In this document: positions 2,956 through 39,827 of the stretch, in pieces
Position numbering within the stretch: the stretch's first letter is position 1
Layout: each line of letters starts with the position of its first letter
The notes under the pieces: generated by a model
What the model was told of the DNA's origin: nothing
Seen by the model: only the letters and a program-made list of their open reading frames with translations
Database searches by the model: none
Origin: PVC group bacterium
GTDB taxonomy: Bacteria; Omnitrophota; Gorgyraeia; B26-G9
NCBI GenBank assembly: GCA_024231215.1
Contig: JAAEQR010000195.1
Span: 78,755 to 142,754, forward strand
Direction: 5' to 3'
DNA length: 64,000 bases
Position numbers and translations under genes: made by a program

Positions 2956-3528
2956 ATGAGAAAATATTTAAAAATATTTTACGTGACAATAGGACTAATT
3001 CTAATGCCCTCTGTTTGTTTTGCGGATGGAGGAGGACCAATATTATTGCTGATTAATGGATATGCTTTTAGTGTCGGGCAAATTTGGATTATGTCTGTGG
3101 AATTTGGCTATCTTTTTTTATGGTTAAAATCCTTATCTTTTTCGAAATGGAAAATTTTTAAAATAACATTTATTATGAATCTTCTTTCAACTTTGCTGGG
3201 TGCTATTTTATTTCCGTTATTGCTGGCGATCGTAACATTCCCTGGATTATTATATATGAATACTAAATGGGGCGGATTGCTGATGGCTCTTGGCACCTGG
3301 ATAGCGGGTGATAACTCGCCTAATTCTGAAGTTGCAATCGGTGCCGCAGTAGTTGGGTTTTTTATAACATTTATTTTAACGATATGGATTGAGTATAAAT
3401 ATCTTAAAAGATTATCGCGAAAAAAACAGATAGATTTTGGAAAGAATCTTTTCAAGCATTGTATTTATTTTAACATAATAAGTTATACAGGATTAATAAC
3501 TTTGTTTTTTGTTCTTCAAAGATTATGA
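2956..3528 (+). CDS. hypothetical polytopic membrane protein
   Basis: 190 aa with several hydrophobic segments. No family recognised. Confidence 0.5.
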   Translation: MRKYLKIFYVTIGLILMPSVCFADGGGPILLLINGYAFSVGQIWIMSVEFGYLFLWLKSLSFSKWKIFKITFIMNLLSTLLGAILFPLLLAIVTFPGLLYMNTKWGGLLMALGTWIAGDNSPNSEVAIGAAVVGFFITFILTIWIEYKYLKRLSRKKQIDFGKNLFKHCIYFNIISYTGLITLFFVLQRL

Positions 3529-4647: not shown

Positions 4648-5610
4648 TTATTTTTTTGCTGCCTTGATTGCATCTATTGCTTCCTGACAGTGCTTTTTAA
4701 ACGTATACCTTTCTTTTTTATCTGGTGGTAAATTATATTTGAGCGCATGCTCTAAATAATCTAAAGCGTCGTTTCCGTAGTGCACCAACAATTCTTTGCA
4801 TTTCTTGGGGAATATCACGAATTTTTTTTCCAAAGCAGGTAAAATATAAGGCGTTGCTTTTGGGCCGTATTCTTTAAGCGCATCAAAAGCTACTTGTTGT
4901 AAAGGGGTCAATGTTCTTACTTCTGTCCTCCAGCCGCGTTCTGTATAAAATGCATAAGCAAAGTTTGGCATGGCTTCGTTTGCATTGAATTTTTTTGCGA
5001 TCATCGCAGACTCTGTTCTTGCTTTGCACATCGGATTATTGATGCCCTGGATGGCGATTTTAGTGGCTGGCTCTGCGGCCTTACCCATTTGCAATAGAGC
5101 TTGCCCGCAGGCTTGGGCAAAATATCTATTTTGATTTTTTAATCCGCTAGTAAGTAAAGAGATTGTTTCATTGTTAGATTGCCCTATTTTCCCTAATGCT
5201 TCTGCCGCTGCGGTTTTAACTTGAATATCCGGGTCATTAAGCTTTTCGGTAAGGGATTCTATTATCTCCGGAGCAGAATAATCAAGTTCTCCTAAAGCCT
5301 GACAGGCTTTTATTCTCTGCTTCGGGTCTTTATCTGTAAGTTGTTTAATTAACCCGGAAGGATTGTTGTTAATAATTGGTTGTTCGGGAACTTTTTTTTC
5401 AGGTAGTGGTTTTTTAACCGCCGGGACTATATTAGTTTTTTTGATTTTTGCAGGCTTAGCAGATGTTTTAGTTAAAGTAATAGGTGGTGGCTGCTGTTTC
5501 TTTTTTGATTTAGAGAGTTTGGGAATGAATAGGACAATCAGGGAAATAAACCCTACCAATATCACGATAACTGTTACTAATTCAAACATGATTTTTCGAG
5601 GCATTTTCAT
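4648..5610 (-). CDS. HEAT-repeat (PBS-lyase-like) protein with an N-terminal TM anchor
   Basis: 320 aa. N-terminal hydrophobic helix followed by a Lys/Pro-rich linker. Repeats of the type DPDIQVKTAAAEALGKIG and KQRIKACQALGEL. RBS AAAGGA precedes the ATG on the minus strand. Confidence 0.65.
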   Translation of the reverse strand: MKMPRKIMFELVTVIVILVGFISLIVLFIPKLSKSKKKQQPPPITLTKTSAKPAKIKKTNIVPAVKKPLPEKKVPEQPIINNNPSGLIKQLTDKDPKQRIKACQALGELDYSAPEIIESLTEKLNDPDIQVKTAAAEALGKIGQSNNETISLLTSGLKNQNRYFAQACGQALLQMGKAAEPATKIAIQGINNPMCKARTESAMIAKKFNANEAMPNFAYAFYTERGWRTEVRTLTPLQQVAFDALKEYGPKATPYILPALEKKFVIFPKKCKELLVHYGNDALDYLEHALKYNLPPDKKERYTFKKHCQEAIDAIKAAKK

Positions 5611-5706
5611 ATGTCATCCTTTATGGTTAATAGTATCGCATTTAGTTTTTTTTGTAAATAATTAATCTTACTATGATATGATGAGAAAGGAGAGGATGAT
5701 TTAAAG

Positions 5707-5925
5707 ATGAGCGAACAACAAACAAATGATCCATTGCACGGCGTGACGCTTGAGAAGATCGTGAATAGTTTGGTCGAGCAGTATGGCTGGGACGTCTTAG
5801 GCGAACGCATTAATATCCGGTGTTTTACTAATGATCCATCCGTAAAATCCAGCCTCAAATTTCTGCGAAGAACTCCCTGGGCAAGGAAAAAAGTCGAGAA
5901 CTTATATCTGGAAATTTCTGAATAA
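5707..5925 (+). CDS. DUF2132-family small protein
   Basis: 72 aa. [57 protein letters not shown] resembles the DUF2132/VF530 signature. Strong RBS AAAGGAGAGGA. Confidence 0.55.
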
Positions 5926-11148: not shown

Positions 11149-12351
11149 ATGTCAGAAGAATTAATTAAACAAGCAAAAGAGAAATTTGCAGTGATCATCG
11201 AAGAACAGTTAATGCGGGTTGAAGAGATGAAAAAAGGTGCGGCATGGACCGACTTTTCAAAGCTGTCCCCGATTATTATCGGCGTGTGTTTTGGTGACGG
11301 GATTGGTGAAATTATTTCAAAACACGCGGAAACAGTTTTATCTCATATACTCAAAGATGAAGTGGCCAACGGTAAAGTTAAGTTTAAAGATATTGCCGGG
11401 CTTACGATCGAAAACCGGGCGGCTCAAAAAAAAGCAATCCCTGATGATGTTCTTGAAGAAATAAAGTCTTGTCATGTTATTCTTAAAGGTCCGACGACAA
11501 CTCCGCAGAAAGGCGATAATTGGCCGAATATTGAAAGCGCGAATGTAGCGATGCGCAGATATCTGGATCTTTTTGCTAATGTCCGGCCGGTACGTATTCC
11601 CCAAGAAGGAATTGACTGGTGTTTCTTTCGTGAAAATACAGAAGGCGCTTATGTGTTAGGTTCAAAAGGTTTTGACGTAACTGAAGATTTAAGTATAGAT
11701 TTTAAGGTTATTACTGAACAGGGTGCGGAACGAATTATTCGCATGGCATTTGAATATGCTAAAAATAATAACATTGATAGGGTTACAGTAGTAACTAAAT
11801 CTAATGTTGTTAAGACTACTGACGGCAGATTTTCACAGGTTGCGTTTCGGATTGCAAACGAGTATCCGGGAATTAAGCTGGATGAATGGTATATTGATAT
11901 TATGACCGCAAAACTTATTGATCCGGCCCGGCGTAAAGATTTTAAAGTAATGGTTCTTCCAAATCTTTACGGTGATATTCTTACGGATGAGGCTGCACAG
12001 ATGCAGGGTGGTGTTGGTACAGCGGGAAGTGCTAATATTGGAAAACATTGGTCGATGTTTGAGGCAATTCATGGTAGTGCTCCGCGGATGGTTAAAGAAG
12101 GCAGAGCTAAATTTGCTGATCCTTGTTCTATGATTCGTGCTAGCGCGATGCTGCTGCGACATATTGGCTATCCTGAACGCGCGGAGAAAGTAGAGATGGC
12201 TTTGGAGGTATGTGGTACGTATGAGAAAAAAATGGTAATTACCGGCAGAGATTCCGGAGTTACCGGAGAAGAGTATACTCAGTATTTATTATCCTGGGTG
12301 GATAATCCGGAGCTTAAGACTCGCTGGGGACAAGGAGTTAACAAAAGTTAA
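11149..12351 (+). CDS. icd: isocitrate dehydrogenase (NADP) of the beta-decarboxylating dehydrogenase family
   Basis: 400 aa with GDGIGEI and NLYGDILTDEAAQMQGGVGTAGSANIG motifs. RBS AGGAGA. Confidence 0.7.
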   Translation: MSEELIKQAKEKFAVIIEEQLMRVEEMKKGAAWTDFSKLSPIIIGVCFGDGIGEIISKHAETVLSHILKDEVANGKVKFKDIAGLTIENRAAQKKAIPDDVLEEIKSCHVILKGPTTTPQKGDNWPNIESANVAMRRYLDLFANVRPVRIPQEGIDWCFFRENTEGAYVLGSKGFDVTEDLSIDFKVITEQGAERIIRMAFEYAKNNNIDRVTVVTKSNVVKTTDGRFSQVAFRIANEYPGIKLDEWYIDIMTAKLIDPARRKDFKVMVLPNLYGDILTDEAAQMQGGVGTAGSANIGKHWSMFEAIHGSAPRMVKEGRAKFADPCSMIRASAMLLRHIGYPERAEKVEMALEVCGTYEKKMVITGRDSGVTGEEYTQYLLSWVDNPELKTRWGQGVNKS

Positions 12352-12429
12352 GGTAAGGGAGGTAAGATGCAAGTTAAAGAAACAAAGAAAAAAAGAAAAC
12401 TTATTGAAAAAGAAGGAGGAGAGAAAATA

Positions 12430-13767
12430 ATGGATGCAAAAGTAAAACAGTTTATGGAAGGTGTTATCAAAAGAAACCCGGGAGAATCGGAGTTTCATCA
12501 GGCAGTGCAGGAAGTTGCTGAATCGGTGATGCCGTTTATCGACGCAAATCCAAAATATAAGAAAGCAAAAATTTTAGAAAGAATAGCAGAACCGGAAAGA
12601 GTAATAATGTTCCGGGTGCCGTGGAAGACTGATAAAGGTGAAGTTGAGGTTAACCGAGGTTTTCGAATTGAGATGAATAGCGCTATTGGTCCTTACAAAG
12701 GTGGATTACGTTTTCATCCAACTGTTTATTTAGGGATTTTGAAATTTCTTGCTTTTGAGCAGGTATTTAAAAACAGCTTAACTACTTTGCCTATGGGCGG
12801 CGGAAAAGGCGGTTCTGATTTTGATCCTAAAGGAAAATCTGATAATGAAGTAATGAGTTTTTGCCAGAGTTTTATGACTGAACTCTCGCGTCATATCGGG
12901 CCTGATACAGATGTTCCTGCAGGAGATATTGGTGTTGGCGGACGTGAAATTGGGTTTATGTTTGGGCAATATAAAAGAATCCGCAATGAGTTTACCGGAA
13001 TTTTAACTGGTAAAGGGCTTAATTGGGGTGGTAGTTTGATTAGACCGGAAGCTACTGGCTATGGTTGTGTTTATTTTGTTGAAGCGATGTTGAATCATCT
13101 TGGCGATTCTTTAAATGGAAAAGTTTGTACTGTATCCGGGGCTGGAAACGTTGCACAATATACAGTAGAGAAGGTAAACCAGTTGGGCGGCAAATGTGTT
13201 ACTTTATCTGATTCCGGTGGATATATTTATGATAAAGATGGGATTGATGCAAATAAGCTGGCATTTGTGATGAAGCTTAAGAATATAAAGCGCGGCAGAA
13301 TTAAAGAATACGCGGATAAATACGGTTGTAAATATGTTGCGAATAAACGTCCTTGGGATGTTAAATGTGATGTGGCTTTTCCTTCGGCTACGCAGAATGA
13401 AATAAATAAGGAAGATGCTAAAGCTTTAGTAAAGAATGGATGTATTGCTATCGGTGAAGGCGCAAACATGCCTACAACTCCTGATGGAGTAGAAGTATTT
13501 CAGAAAGCCAAAATTTGTTACGGTCCGGGTAAAGCAGCTAATGCCGGTGGAGTAGCAACTTCTGGTTTGGAAATGTCTCAGAACAGCTTAAGGTTGTCCT
13601 GGAGTCGTGAAGAAGTAGACAAGCGTTTGCATAATATTATGCTGGACATTCATGCACAGTGTGTAAAATACGGTACAAGTGGAGAGCATGTTGATTATGT
13701 AAAAGGTGCGAATATCGGAGGATTTGTTAAAGTAGCTGATTCAATGCTTGATCAGGGAATAGTGTAA
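12430..13767 (+). CDS. gdhA: NADP-specific glutamate dehydrogenase
   Basis: KGGLRFHP and [16 protein letters not shown] signatures. The start was moved to the internal ATG ([29 protein letters not shown]) preceded by AAGGAGGA; it aligns with the E. coli GdhA N-terminus. Confidence 0.85.
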
Positions 13768-28657: not shown

Positions 28658-29377
28658 TTGAAAGGGGTTTTGAAGTTGAATATTAAATCACATGAAGCAT
28701 ACATAGATACATTAAGTAAAATAAGTAAGGCGATAACAAGCGATCTTTATTTAGAAGACGTTTTAAAACTTGTGGTTACCTTGACCGCGAATGTTATGAA
28801 CGCAAAAATTTGCGCTTTGTGGCTTTTGGATGAAAAGACTCAGGAATTAAAAATTAAAGCAACACAAGCGATGAGCAGTGAATATTTAAAAGAGCGTACA
28901 TTAAAAGTTGGCGAGGGAATTGTCGGGTTAGTCGCGAAAAGCAAGAAGCCGATTGCGATACTGGATATTTTGAAAGATAAAAGGTATAAAGAGAAGAAAT
29001 TAGCTAAGAAAGAAAAACTTGTTTCTATGCTTAGTATTCCGATGCTTGTAAAGAGTCGTGTGATTGGAGTTGTTAATTGTTATACAACCGCGAAGTATAA
29101 ATTTACTAAAAGCGACATCAATCTTTTAAGTACTGTTTCCAATCAGGCTGCTGTAGCTATAGAAAATACAGAGTTAATTGTTAAGACAAAAGTTGTGCAG
29201 GAAGAATTAGACGCGCGAAAAAAAGTGGAAAAAGCAAAAGGGCTCTTAATGAAGGAACAGAATATTACTGAGCAGCAAGCGTACAATATCCTCCGCAAGT
29301 CAAGTATGAATAAACGCATTTCCATGAAAGATATTGCCGAGGCAATAATCCTATCTTCTGAAATCAAGAAAAAATAA
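28658..29377 (+). CDS. GAF-domain + ANTAR-domain RNA-binding regulator
   Basis: 239 aa. N-terminal GAF-like region and C-terminal ANTAR helix set (EQQAYNILRKSSMNKRISMKDIAEAII). Start codon uncertain; TTG or ATG at 28658-28692. Confidence 0.65.
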   Translation: MKGVLKLNIKSHEAYIDTLSKISKAITSDLYLEDVLKLVVTLTANVMNAKICALWLLDEKTQELKIKATQAMSSEYLKERTLKVGEGIVGLVAKSKKPIAILDILKDKRYKEKKLAKKEKLVSMLSIPMLVKSRVIGVVNCYTTAKYKFTKSDINLLSTVSNQAAVAIENTELIVKTKVVQEELDARKKVEKAKGLLMKEQNITEQQAYNILRKSSMNKRISMKDIAEAIILSSEIKKK

Positions 29378-29537
29378 TCATCGAAAAATACTGAAATATT
29401 TTATTGTTGCTTTTTTTGTAAAATTTTTTTTTGCAAAAAAGTAATTTTTTCCTTGTAATCAATTCCCGTTTTAGTATATAGTATACATATAAGAAAAAAA
29501 TGGGGGTTAATCAGTAAAACTGATTTAATATATAAAA

Positions 29538-29750
29538 ATGAAAGGGGGTGACACCGTGGCCGTAAAAAAGAAAAAAGCAGCAAAGAAAAAAGTGGCAAAG
29601 AAAAAAGTTGTAAAGAAAAAAGTAGCTAAGAAAAAAGTGGCAAAGAAAAAAGTTGTAAAGAAAAAAGTGGCAAAGAAAAAAGTAGCAAAGAAAAAAGTGG
29701 CAAAGAAAAAAGTGGCAAAGAAAAAAGTGGCAAAGAAAAAGAAAAAATAG
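29538..29750 (+). CDS. lysine-rich tandem-repeat protein, histone-H1/AlgP-tail-like
   Basis: 64-70 aa consisting almost solely of (V/A)(A/V)KKK pentads. RBS AAAGGGGG; the start is ATG 29538 or GTG 29556. Confidence 0.5.
   Translation: MKGGDTVAVKKKKAAKKKVAKKKVVKKKVAKKKVAKKKVVKKKVAKKKVAKKKVAKKKVAKKKVAKKKKK
29577..29741 (+). repeat. 11 tandem copies of a 15-bp unit (GTGGCAAAGAAAAAA and variants), in-frame coding repeat
   Basis: Direct reading of the sequence. Units differ only at the first or second codon. Confidence 0.9.
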
Positions 29751-30054
29751 TTGTTGGAACAACGTTGAATTTAAATCTTAGATTTTAAGTAGGTCCCAAA
29801 TTTGATTAGCAAAACAAGGATGTTGCTGAATCCCAAAGGTGGGGAAGCTAACAAAAAGTTTTAGGTGTTTGAAGTAAAAAAGATTTTCCCGCCTTTGGGA
29901 GGGGATCAAAAAACAGCATTTAGAATTTCTACACTAATATCCTTCCCATGTTTCCTATTTTTTATATTGTTGATGAAAATTAAATATTTTTTAAGTTGGA
30001 ACTGTTTGTGGTGCAACATGTTACGAAATTTAATATTTTAGAGCAGTTATTGAT

Positions 30055-30090
30055 ATCTTCTCCCCTCATTGTGTTGGGAGATTTTTTTAT
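30055..30090 (+). terminator. candidate intrinsic terminator ending a roughly 340-nt non-coding stretch
   Basis: TCTCCC-loop-GGGAGA followed by TTTTTTT. Confidence 0.45.
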
Positions 30091-30168
30091 TTGTAGCCGG
30101 AGGCATAACTAATAATTGACTTTTTAATGTAAGTGTTGTATTTTAAAAGTTATAAGGGGGGTGATGGA

Positions 30169-30483
30169 ATGAATGGAAAGATAGTGTTACTGATTTTAGG
30201 AGTGTTTGCCGTAATGCTGGTTTCTTGCGTAGTATCTTTTGCTGCGGTTTCTGATGCAAATAATGTGAAAGAAGTGTATGAAGGGGCAACGGTTGAATGC
30301 GCTACTTGTCATGTTCCTGGTAATTTTAAAGAATTAAATAGTTATGGAGAGGAATATAACGATGCCGGCAGGAATACTACTGCCGTGGAAATATCCGGGG
30401 ATACCGATAGTGATGGTGATGATGTTAGCAACGCAGATGAAATAATGGCAGGGACTAATCCTGGAGATGCAGAGAGTAAATAA
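30169..30483 (+). CDS. small exported protein with a CxxCH motif and a TSP3-like Asp-rich tail
   Basis: Start MNGKIVLLILGVFAVMLVSCVVSFA with RBS AAGGGGGG. ECATCH motif. C-terminal GDTDSDGDDVSNADE. Confidence 0.45.
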   Translation: MNGKIVLLILGVFAVMLVSCVVSFAAVSDANNVKEVYEGATVECATCHVPGNFKELNSYGEEYNDAGRNTTAVEISGDTDSDGDDVSNADEIMAGTNPGDAESK

Positions 30484-39461: not shown

Positions 39462-39539
39462 CGGGGCGTGGCTCAGCTTGGCTAGAGCGCCTGGTTTGGG
39501 ACCAGGAAGTCACAGGTTCAAATCCTGTCGCCCCGACCA
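39462..39539 (+). tRNA. tRNA-Pro (TGG)
   Basis: Cloverleaf read by eye. Acceptor CGGGGCG/CGCCCCG. Anticodon loop tTTGGGa. Encoded CCA. Confidence 0.85.
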
Positions 39540-39596
39540 TTTAGTTTATAGTCAATATTAATAGAAACATTTTACTAGTGACTATAAACTAATCAT

Positions 39597-39673
<77 letters not shown>

Positions 39674-39749
39674 TCTATGAAGTTACAAGTTACAGATTAT
39701 GAGTGACAAGTTGTAATTTGTCATTTGTAATTCGTAACTATTTTAATAT

Positions 39750-39827
39750 GGTGGGTGTAGCTCAGTTGGTTAGAGCACATGATTGTGGTTCATGATGTCG
39801 TGGGTTCGAATCCCATCATCCACCCCA
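39750..39827 (+). tRNA. tRNA-His (GTG) with G-1
   Basis: Extra 5' G. Anticodon loop tTGTGGt. Discriminator C. Encoded CCA. Confidence 0.85.

Follow-up and report, generated by a model that had tools for sequence, protein, structure and literature searches.

Can a tandem repeat that specifies little other than lysine, valine, and alanine be a gene in its own right, and if so, what would its product do? The question is raised by a locus in a 64,000 nucleotide (nt) stretch of DNA, referred to here as the window, from a PVC group bacterium of the phylum Omnitrophota (GTDB lineage Gorgyraeia; B26-G9; assembly GCA_024231215.1, contig JAAEQR010000195.1, positions 78,755–142,754). An earlier annotation made from the letters of this DNA (the original prediction) had described at this locus a stand-alone mini-protein made of (V/A)(A/V)KKK pentads and encoded by a 15-bp tandem repeat. 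Our analyses suggest that positions 29556–29750 of the + strand are a genuine, independently expressed gene, and that its 64 amino acid (aa) product, one of a phylum-wide family, is a sequence-nonspecific polyanion binder for which DNA or RNA is the most probable partner. We assign a probability of about 0.6 to this reading taken as a whole, the status of the gene included. Information regarding the family, its codon usage, its expression signals, and the alternatives to this reading is discussed below.

A Family of Lysine-Rich Microproteins in the Omnitrophota

Our searches have identified 18 distinct complete members of this family in Omnitrophota genomes and metagenomes, where they occur in three genomic contexts. 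The members are 19, 29, 33, 34, 34, 39, 39, 39, 40, 41, 44, 45, 46, 55, 64, 72, 73, and 86 aa long, and every difference in gene length, counted in nt, is divisible by 3, with units of 12 or 15 nt. The family is defined here by a Shine-Dalgarno (SD) sequence, a start of the form M-(V/A)-V-K3-6, units of the form (V/A)(A/V)K2-5, a KKKK(K)-stop end, the almost exclusive use of K, V, and A, and a length of <90 aa. The SD, the start (MVVKKKK or MAVKKK), and the end are common to all members, other residues are rare (13 instances of R, T, P, or E over the 15 tabulated members), and the open reading frame (ORF) in the window has every one of the defining features. It aligns from end to end with 14 other members, with M1, V3, K4-6, and the terminal K being invariant. 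Because the start, stop, SD, and frame are conserved in relatives, the mini-gene is best regarded as a coding gene that stands alone, as the original prediction had proposed. That prediction had also suggested a search for KKK-pentad mini-ORFs in related lineages and had named a repeat that is absent or out of frame in relatives as evidence to the contrary; in the 18 members and three contexts found, the repeat is present and always in frame.

The first context lies downstream of a gene for a GAF-ANTAR regulator, as in the window. Three relatives have a K-rich ORF with the same SD behind their ANTAR gene (40 aa in locus L003, 19 aa in L005, and cut by the end of the contig in L019), and a scan of metagenomes for the SD-start pattern, which yielded ten loci (L060–L069), added further ANTAR-linked copies of 86 aa (L060), 55 aa (L063/L068), and 45 aa (L066). 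The same scan uncovered a second group (MVVKKKKK..., 29–46 aa) located downstream of a phosphofructokinase (PFK) gene, whose product shows 70–78% identity to Omnitrophota PFKs, those of Ca. Aadella gelida and Ca. Makaraimicrobium among them. Downstream of all four PFK homologues that were looked up there is a K-rich mini-ORF, in some cases preceded by a PilZ gene; these copies are 39 aa (L070), 73 aa (L071/72), 41 aa (L074), 72 aa (L075), and 34 aa (L076–78) long. A profile search with relaxed E-values recovered three protein records (P0249, P0250, and P0276) that are family peptides with spurious N-terminal extensions, and their loci (L079–L081) provided the third context, in which P0276, recorded as "hypothetical protein [Candidatus Omnitrophica bacterium]," follows dinB (L079, 33 aa); the locus of P0250 (L080, 39 aa) is of the PFK/PilZ kind. 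Most members of the family thus sit after the PFK/PilZ locus or dinB, not beside an ANTAR gene.

The family was hidden by low-complexity filters. A word-indexed search with the single 64 aa protein returned nothing at E ≤ 1e-3, and the profile search gave family members at E-values of 0.2–3 only. Exact look-ups of the mini-protein with three choices of start found none on record, and 17 family, alternative-start, or reverse-strand sequences likewise had no exact counterpart in the collection; the called versions were later found to carry the spurious N-terminal extensions, which are 19–25 aa long and run from upstream starts. Among other annotations of these loci, the mini-gene is uncalled in one NCBI metagenome-assembled genome (MAG; L070, 4441–4560), and in L065 a 73 aa E/K-rich ORF (12251–12472, +) is open over the repeat in the wrong frame. 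The searchable literature, including two phylum-wide studies of Omnitrophota, holds no prior description under the pentad strings or under lysine-rich or histone-like proteins in this phylum. From these sequence comparisons, the mini-protein belongs to a previously unrecognised, phylum-wide family of Omnitrophota microproteins, which represents a minimal new variant of the lysine-repeat polycation theme.

Start Codon and Product of the Mini-Gene

The ORF list and the alignment with homologues place the mini-gene at 29556–29750 (+), comprising 64 codons and a TAG stop. The original prediction had started the ORF at ATG 29538 and credited it with a good ribosome-binding site. The SD is real (AAAGGGGGTGA, 29541–29551, +), and it serves a different start: it falls inside the ORF begun at 29538, downstream of that ATG, and its spacing is right only for GTG 29556, before which it ends by 4 nt (its GGGGG core lies 7 nt before the GTG). 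GTG 29556 is therefore taken as the true start. Homologues have TTG, ATG, or GTG at exactly this position in the alignment, and the upstream ATG is kept in only two of four aligned relatives. An identical SD (GAAAGGGGGTGA) is present in L003, L005, and L019, and the other members of the family have AAGGGGGTGA, AAGGAGGTG, or AAGGGAGG. On these comparisons, translation starts at GTG 29556 and the predicted product is 64 aa long.

This product, MAVKKKKAAKKK(VAKKK/VVKKK)n...KKKKK, consists of MAVKKKK, 11 pentads (one AAKKK, eight VAKKK, and two VVKKK), and a terminal KK, so that after the initiating residue it is made of lysine, valine, and alanine only; it has no acidic residues and a net charge of about +39. 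Lysine accounts for 39 of the 64 residues (61%), or for 57% in the 70 aa reading from ATG 29538, which is lower than the roughly 70% first estimated.

Codon Usage and Variation in Repeat Number

The encoding of the pentads by a 15-bp tandem repeat is borne out by both the ORF list and Tandem Repeats Finder, which reports an array at 29567–29740 (+) of 11.6 copies with the consensus AAAGAAAAAAGTGGC (score 285, 90% matches, 0% indels). Across the 11 units in the window, the sites that vary are the third position of the Val/Ala codons, the second position that distinguishes Val from Ala, and one terminal AAA/AAG. Between lineages, the Val-Ala pair is written GTA GCA or GTG GCA in the ANTAR-linked group and GTT GCG in the PFK-linked group. 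The peptide has thus been kept while third positions have diverged, which is a signature of coding sequence.

The lysine codons show a further regularity. The longest run of A is 6–7 nt in the 15 tabulated members and 8 nt in L079 (as read from the sequence), and shuffling of the lysine codons in the first ten members gives runs of 8–13.5 nt. AAA makes up 68% of the lysine codons in the long ORFs of the window, and a KKKKKKKKK tail is spelled AAG AAA AAG AAA AAG AAA AAG AAA AAA. This avoidance of long A-runs fits selection against slippage in transcription or translation.

The number of repeats varies between strains, as had been anticipated. The mini-proteins of L074 and L075 are 41 and 72 aa long, respectively, although the PFK proteins of the two loci do not differ at all and about 2 kb of flanking sequence on either side shows 99.55% identity; within the family as a whole the range is 19–86 aa, always in frame.

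Expression Signals

A consensus scan identified a promoter-like site, TTGTAA-18-TATAGT, at 29453–29482 (+), which is the probable promoter of the mini-gene transcript; in homologous loci, TTGAAA-18-TATATT occupies the corresponding position. Between this site and 30116 the scan found no further promoter-like site on the + strand. Upstream of the copies linked to PFK and dinB is a promoter-like site (TTGCAA-16-TATATT), a GC-rich hairpin with a T-run lies about 20–45 nt after their stop, and the next gene has a separate promoter. Having their own promoter and terminator, these copies are presumably monocistronic units.

The 5′ leader from promoter to SD is conserved in L003 (4840–4930), L005 (4830–4900), L019, L060, and L063, where inverted AUACAAUAU/AUAUUGU(G)U segments within it might pair as a hairpin. 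In the window, the leader is different and shorter, with an AAUCAG/CUGAUU hairpin at about 29509–29525.

Relationship to Histone H1-Like and Other Lysine-Rich Proteins

A likeness to the lysine-rich tails of eukaryotic histone H1, chlamydial Hc2, and Pseudomonas AlgP had been noted at the outset. The resemblance stands as one of composition and does not extend to family membership. The sole Pfam match of the mini-protein is HC2 (PF07382; residues 8–68 of the 70 aa reading, E 1.4e-4), at 22.5 bits against a threshold of 40, and the NCBIfam models histone_lik_HC2 (11.9 bits, cut-off 135) and NF038053, the Burkholderia-type histone H1-like model (13.1 bits, cut-off 80), are likewise below threshold. 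The C-terminal domain of eukaryotic histone H1 is a lysine-rich, acid-free polycation that condenses DNA, and the histone H1 of kinetoplastids, which is devoid of a globular domain, is like the mini-protein a short, stand-alone "tail." Unlike the mini-protein, histone H1 tails have S/TPKK motifs and proline and no strict pentad arrays, and homology is not demonstrable.

The Chlamydiae, from which Hc2 is known, and the host of the mini-protein belong to the same PVC superphylum. Hc2 (HctB) binds both DNA and RNA, and its lysine-rich pentamers give it a length that varies between strains (PMC2848022). Its repeats, like those of the mini-protein, are consecutive lysine-rich pentamers with Ala/Val in an acid-free region (PMC2848022), and the in-frame gain and loss of Hc2 repeats seen between strains is also found in the mini-family (19–86 aa; 41 vs. 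72 aa). Unlike the mini-protein, Hc2 is 165–237 aa long and has conserved non-repeat flanks and 36 aa super-repeats (PMC2848022). Hc2 carries two basic residues per pentamer and the mini-protein three lysines, and beyond its pentads the latter has only M-A/V-V and the terminal KK, with neither the flanks nor the super-repeats of Hc2. Hc2-like proteins have also been noted in Bordetella and Burkholderia (PMC2848022). These betaproteobacterial H1-like proteins (viz. Bordetella BpH1 and the Burkholderia proteins of NF038053) and Pseudomonas AlgP, which are regarded as nucleoid- or polyphosphate-associated, have lysine/alanine-rich repeats too, but they differ from the mini-protein in their length (about 180–350 aa) and in their KPAA/AAKP-type units.

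Pentads identical to those of the mini-protein also occur as appendages of larger proteins. An exhaustive HMMER search of 1.84 billion representatives gave 115 matches, all of at least 100 aa and none of them a homologue; they are unrelated proteins with a terminal (VAKKK)n tail, e.g., a ParA-like ATPase, and SWIB-domain proteins with the same tail were seen in the relaxed profile search. Several of the tailed proteins, the ParA-like and SWIB ones among them, belong to families associated with DNA. In ParA-like, SWIB, TopA, Ku, and PhaF proteins, lysine repeats, including identical (VAKKK)n strings, form N- or C-terminal extensions. Such tails are reported to confer or modulate binding to DNA or RNA (PMC5714199, PMC3553676, PMC12818456). 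In these larger proteins the repeat is an appendage on a folded domain, whereas in the mini-gene it is the whole product.

Searches of PDB, PHROGs, and PADLOC gave nothing meaningful for the mini-protein and no related solved structure. Its sole PDB sequence match is to a SigA chain (8dy7_F), an RNA polymerase sigma factor, in the K-rich region, and the primary sigma-70 gene seen at some family loci (L067, 4923–6554; the first gene of L070 and L076) encodes a lysine-rich N-terminal extension (MPKRPKKTVKSAKKVVKPKTACKK...). P0256, P0282, P0283, and P0295 (62–76 aa) combine a conserved N-terminal segment of about 35 aa (MGKIIAKKVITRKPGFLYYVDGAGNVCEAKMARGG) with a (VAKKK)n tail and form a second small-protein type. 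In L066, tandem paralogous ORFs of 106 and 121 aa (5162–5482 and 5511–5876), which share the N-terminus MF(E/D)..EK.ILAGVG and appear phasin-like by eye, end in the second copy in a K/V/A-rich tail (KKKTKVVKAAPVAVKKKVKAKAKKKV) that recalls the H1-like tails of PhaF type.

Proposed Function

We infer from these comparisons that the mini-protein is translated in vivo and that it binds a polyanion, for which DNA or RNA is the most probable identity. By analogy with the lysine-rich tails of histone H1 and Hc2, it would neutralise and condense DNA or RNA electrostatically, and the number of pentads would set its valency and affinity. Copy number would shift rapidly through slipped-strand mispairing or unequal recombination among the 12 or 15 nt units, always with preservation of the frame, and regularly placed AAG codons would keep A-runs short enough to prevent slipping during transcription or translation.

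Two other roles for a basic product have to be weighed against this. The mini-protein could be a ribosome-associated small basic protein, comparable to bTHX, bS22, or bL37, that binds rRNA on the surface of the ribosome. Its tiny size, extreme basicity, strong SD, and own promoter and terminator are those of abundant housekeeping microproteins, and it is conserved across the phylum at a stable locus. However, a length that ranges from 19 to 86 aa, and differs by 31 residues in near-identical strains, is hard to fit to a fixed structural site; the profile and structure searches found no non-repeat motif and no match to a ribosomal-protein model, and in the loci examined the mini-gene lies outside ribosomal-protein operons. 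We therefore regard a ribosomal role as unlikely. A pure polycation would bind any polyanion, and AlgP is reported to aid the even spacing of polyphosphate granules in Pseudomonas (PMC9239181), so that the mini-protein might instead bind polyphosphate and organise its granules. The three contexts examined contain no gene for polyphosphate kinase or for granule proteins, and this suggestion, which is drawn purely from analogy, seems to us rather improbable. The binding of DNA or RNA accordingly remains the partner that we favor.

A Candidate ANTAR Switch Downstream of the Mini-Gene

In the window, the mini-gene is followed by a structured RNA at 29792–29907 (+), which is predicted to be an ANTAR binding site or switch and is kept in all six complete ANTAR-linked loci (viz. 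the window, L003, L005, L060, L063, and L066), at 33–55 nt after the stop of the mini-gene. Its predicted fold (all on the + strand) consists of an outer helix P0 (GGUCCC/GGGAUC, 29792–29797 with 29902–29907), a hexaloop hairpin H1 (aac-AAGGAU-guu, 29813–29824), and a 15-bp long hairpin with a variable loop (29832–29846 with 29885–29899), inside the 5′ arm of which lies an alternative hexaloop hairpin H2 (ccc-AAAGGU-ggg, 29832–29843). The minimum free energy fold is a three-way junction (-46.8 kcal/mol, z -2.9), about 11 kcal/mol below the alternative with hairpin H2. The variable loop upset the MAFFT alignment of the full RNA, so that constructs trimmed by hand were used; their 24 pairs are 99.2% paired and include three compensatory pairs, all from L005. 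Another RNA alignment was selected for pairing, which makes its 100% pairing circular and leaves the diversity of pair types as its one informative feature. The stem of hairpin H2 covaries once (CCC/GGG to CUC/GAG, in L005).

Targets of ANTAR proteins are defined by two stem-loops whose hexaloops begin with A and have G as their fourth base, the second stem-loop being part of a competing hairpin (PMC8934654). The loops of hairpins H1 and H2 both have this A1/G4 pattern in all six loci, the linker between them is 7 nt in the window and 6–7 nt over the loci, and in the window, L003, L005, L019, L060, and L063 the gene directly upstream is that of a GAF-ANTAR protein. In their dual A1/G4 hexaloops, short linker, placement of the second loop within a mutually exclusive hairpin, and adjacent ANTAR gene, these RNAs resemble the targets of EutV and NasR/NasT (PMC8934654). 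Unlike those targets, the element in the window is enclosed by an outer helix as a three-way junction, follows an ORF instead of standing at the 5′ end of the transcript, and has a larger hairpin after which comes GGGAUCAAAAAAC and no U-tract, which makes its action as an intrinsic terminator doubtful. The element might terminate transcription, change the stability of the mRNA, or titrate the regulator. In the form AARGRY, the 64-kb window has a single dual hexaloop and 20 shuffles have none; for the generic A..G.. dual-hexaloop pattern there is no enrichment in the window (32 vs. 23).

Sister Omnitrophota loci without a mini-gene carry the motif aac-AnnGnn-guu, a linker of 3–5 nt, and ggc-AnAGnn-gcc overlapping a GC hairpin with a U-tract. 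These attenuators lie 39–114 nt after the ANTAR stop, behind sequence that by eye is promoter-like (L001, about 4798–4870; L006, about 3190–3260; L011, L018, L021, and L057). Several of them are upstream of a gene for a sigma-70-family protein resembling the extracytoplasmic function type. A dual hexaloop is found within 650 nt in 21 of 57 ANTAR loci, against a background of 0.17 per 650 nt. On this sequence evidence, hairpin H1 is homologous to the canonical ANTAR attenuators of the sister loci, which implies that the mini-gene of the window lineage sits between a promoter and an ANTAR switch. In this sub-lineage, the gene would have been placed between its promoter and an ANTAR-controlled RNA switch and, owing to that position, would be transcribed whatever the state of the switch. 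The position of the mini-gene after an ANTAR regulator and before a long untranslated region had been singled out in the original prediction; the untranslated region does carry a probable ANTAR target, but adjacency to the regulator is not a property of the family.

Rfam scans of 29300–30250, at the gathering thresholds and at E ≤ 10, returned only tRNAs elsewhere in the window and sub-threshold noise. Three other interpretations of the structured RNA were rejected, viz. a hidden ORF starting at an AUG within hairpin H1 (it reads MLLNPKGGEANKKF in the window and MLR in L005), a translational role for its SD-like AAAGGUGGGG (no start codon lies at a suitable distance), and a hammerhead or other ribozyme (the cores are not conserved).

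In the window and six relatives, the ORF stands between a promoter and an RNA of two alternative folds, located about 35–60 nt beyond the stop codon. This is also the classical layout of an attenuator, and the ORF could accordingly be a cis-acting leader whose run of lysine codons senses Lys-tRNA or ribosome speed and sets the fold of the RNA downstream, the peptide itself being irrelevant. Against this, the stop codon is too far from hairpin H1 for a terminating ribosome to cover it, an ORF of 19–86 codons of which about 60% are regulatory is unlike known leaders, and synonymous changes have left the amino acid pattern intact. Copies in the two remaining contexts are monocistronic, with a plain terminator and no alternative fold by eye; the gene after them starts from a promoter of its own and has nothing to do with lysine metabolism. 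Their own promoter and canonical terminator rule out a leader peptide outside the ANTAR context, and we give this explanation little probability. A functional polycation, in the window as elsewhere, is the reading that we retain.

Gene Neighborhood

The GAF-ANTAR regulator is encoded at 28658–29377 (+; Pfam GAF 71.7 bits, ANTAR 68.7 bits). A search of 185,579 species genomes gave 59 homologous loci; the closest relatives of the regulator are from Candidatus Omnitrophota MAGs (up to 80% identity) and distant ones (about 50–55%) from MAGs of Desulfobacterales/Deltaproteobacteria, and an exact look-up of the window protein found none on record. In the window and its nearest relatives the order of the locus is pyrG, GAF-ANTAR, mini-gene, structured RNA, [PAS-HD-GYP], GEGP/cytochrome-like, RluA, and UppP. 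The bracketed PAS-HD-GYP gene (403 aa in L066) is present in L003, L005, L063, and L066, where it has its own near-consensus promoter, and is missing from the window; the comparison is of window 29915–30110 with L066 505–1716, L003 from 5421, and L005 from 5370. These roughly 200 nt of the window show no similarity to the relatives, and with the PAS-HD-GYP gene gone, this part of the "long untranslated region" is the scar of a gene loss. Its absence leaves an apparently orphaned ANTAR site in the window.

Downstream, a possible intrinsic terminator (UCUCCC...GGGAGA followed by U7; 30059–30088, +) was read from the sequence and its fold; with a z-score of -0.29 it is a weak candidate, and the terminator scanner used does not accept a loop of such length. 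The consensus scan places a promoter-like site at 30116–30144 (+), ahead of the next gene (30169–30483), which encodes a small GEGP/cytochrome c-like protein (NCBIfam GEGP diheme domain, 59.9 bits); window 30111–30188 aligns with the region upstream of the orthologous cytochrome-like gene in L066. The SD of this gene (AAGGGGGGTGA, window 30140–30170) has nearly the same extended form as that of the mini-gene, and this form may therefore be usual for the organism and not special to the mini-gene. The window has a G+C content of about 39% and a GC skew that is strongly and uniformly positive (0.14–0.32 in every 2-kb bin), and contains a tRNA-Pro/Arg/His cluster at 39462–39827.

Evaluation and Significance

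Several observations weigh against the reading presented here. The ORF list shows that the repeat region is open in every + frame, with no stop, so that an open frame is by itself no evidence for coding. Gene-calling programs frequently leave the ORF uncalled, start it too far upstream, or settle on another frame. Short-read assemblers may collapse or expand arrays, so that a part of the length differences is possibly artefact, and because repeat units are not independent, the P values for the A-runs are optimistic. The similarity to H1-like proteins falls short of all curated thresholds and is what composition alone would lead one to expect. AlphaFold2 models the mini-protein as a single uninterrupted helix (residues 2–63, predicted local distance difference test score 94.5), but a helix predicted from one low-complexity sequence may be an artefact and indicates helical propensity at most; a chain with a charge of +39 is likely to be disordered when alone.

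The first of these points, together with the repetitiveness of the array and the exact look-ups, most of which found no called protein, would also be expected if the locus were a non-coding, A-rich simple repeat, e.g., an (ARN)n-type RNA platform for protein binding, on which the ORF is incidental. This explanation has very little in its favor once the relatives are considered, since a single frame retains its SD, start, and stop throughout and the indels of 18 members are in frame, Val/Ala codons have diverged synonymously between lineages, and AAG and AAA alternate regularly. An exported polycationic peptide with antimicrobial or cell-penetrating action against hosts or prey, for which one could cite the lysine-rich tails of bacterial Ku that are reported as cell-penetrating peptides (PMC10739243) and the host-dependent traits proposed for Omnitrophota (PMC10066038), is equally hard to credit, as no signal peptide, hydrophobic face, or adjacent transporter, immunity, or processing gene was seen in any context examined.

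An intracellular polyanion binder thus continues to be the reading that we prefer, and its possible place in the cell can be considered. Most Omnitrophota cells are about 0.2 μm across (PMC10066038). Such dimensions make a role in compaction or neutralisation attractive, without proving it. In the most far-reaching form of the reading, which we put forward tentatively and consider doubtful at present, these microproteins would be the main "bacterial protamine" that neutralises charge in the Omnitrophota, i.e., abundant, domain-less polycations that compact DNA, RNA, or both in these very small cells, with hypervariable repeat number tuning compaction between strains and, in the window lineage, production wired into the GAF-ANTAR switch.

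The analyses also provide, as a side yield, candidate ANTAR attenuators paired with their GAF-ANTAR regulator genes in Omnitrophota. To our knowledge, lysine-rich H1-like proteins are found in few bacteria and are always about 150–350 aa long with additional regions. The mini-gene consists of the repeat and nothing more, and its conservation extends over an entire candidate phylum of uncultured, ultra-small bacteria. If the protamine interpretation is true, these would be the smallest and simplest chromatin-type proteins known in bacteria, a class missed by routine annotation. If they are abundant, they would bear on how nucleic acids are packed and neutralised in nanobacteria, and they would provide a minimal natural system for the study of polycation-nucleic-acid condensation and of the evolution of repeat length.

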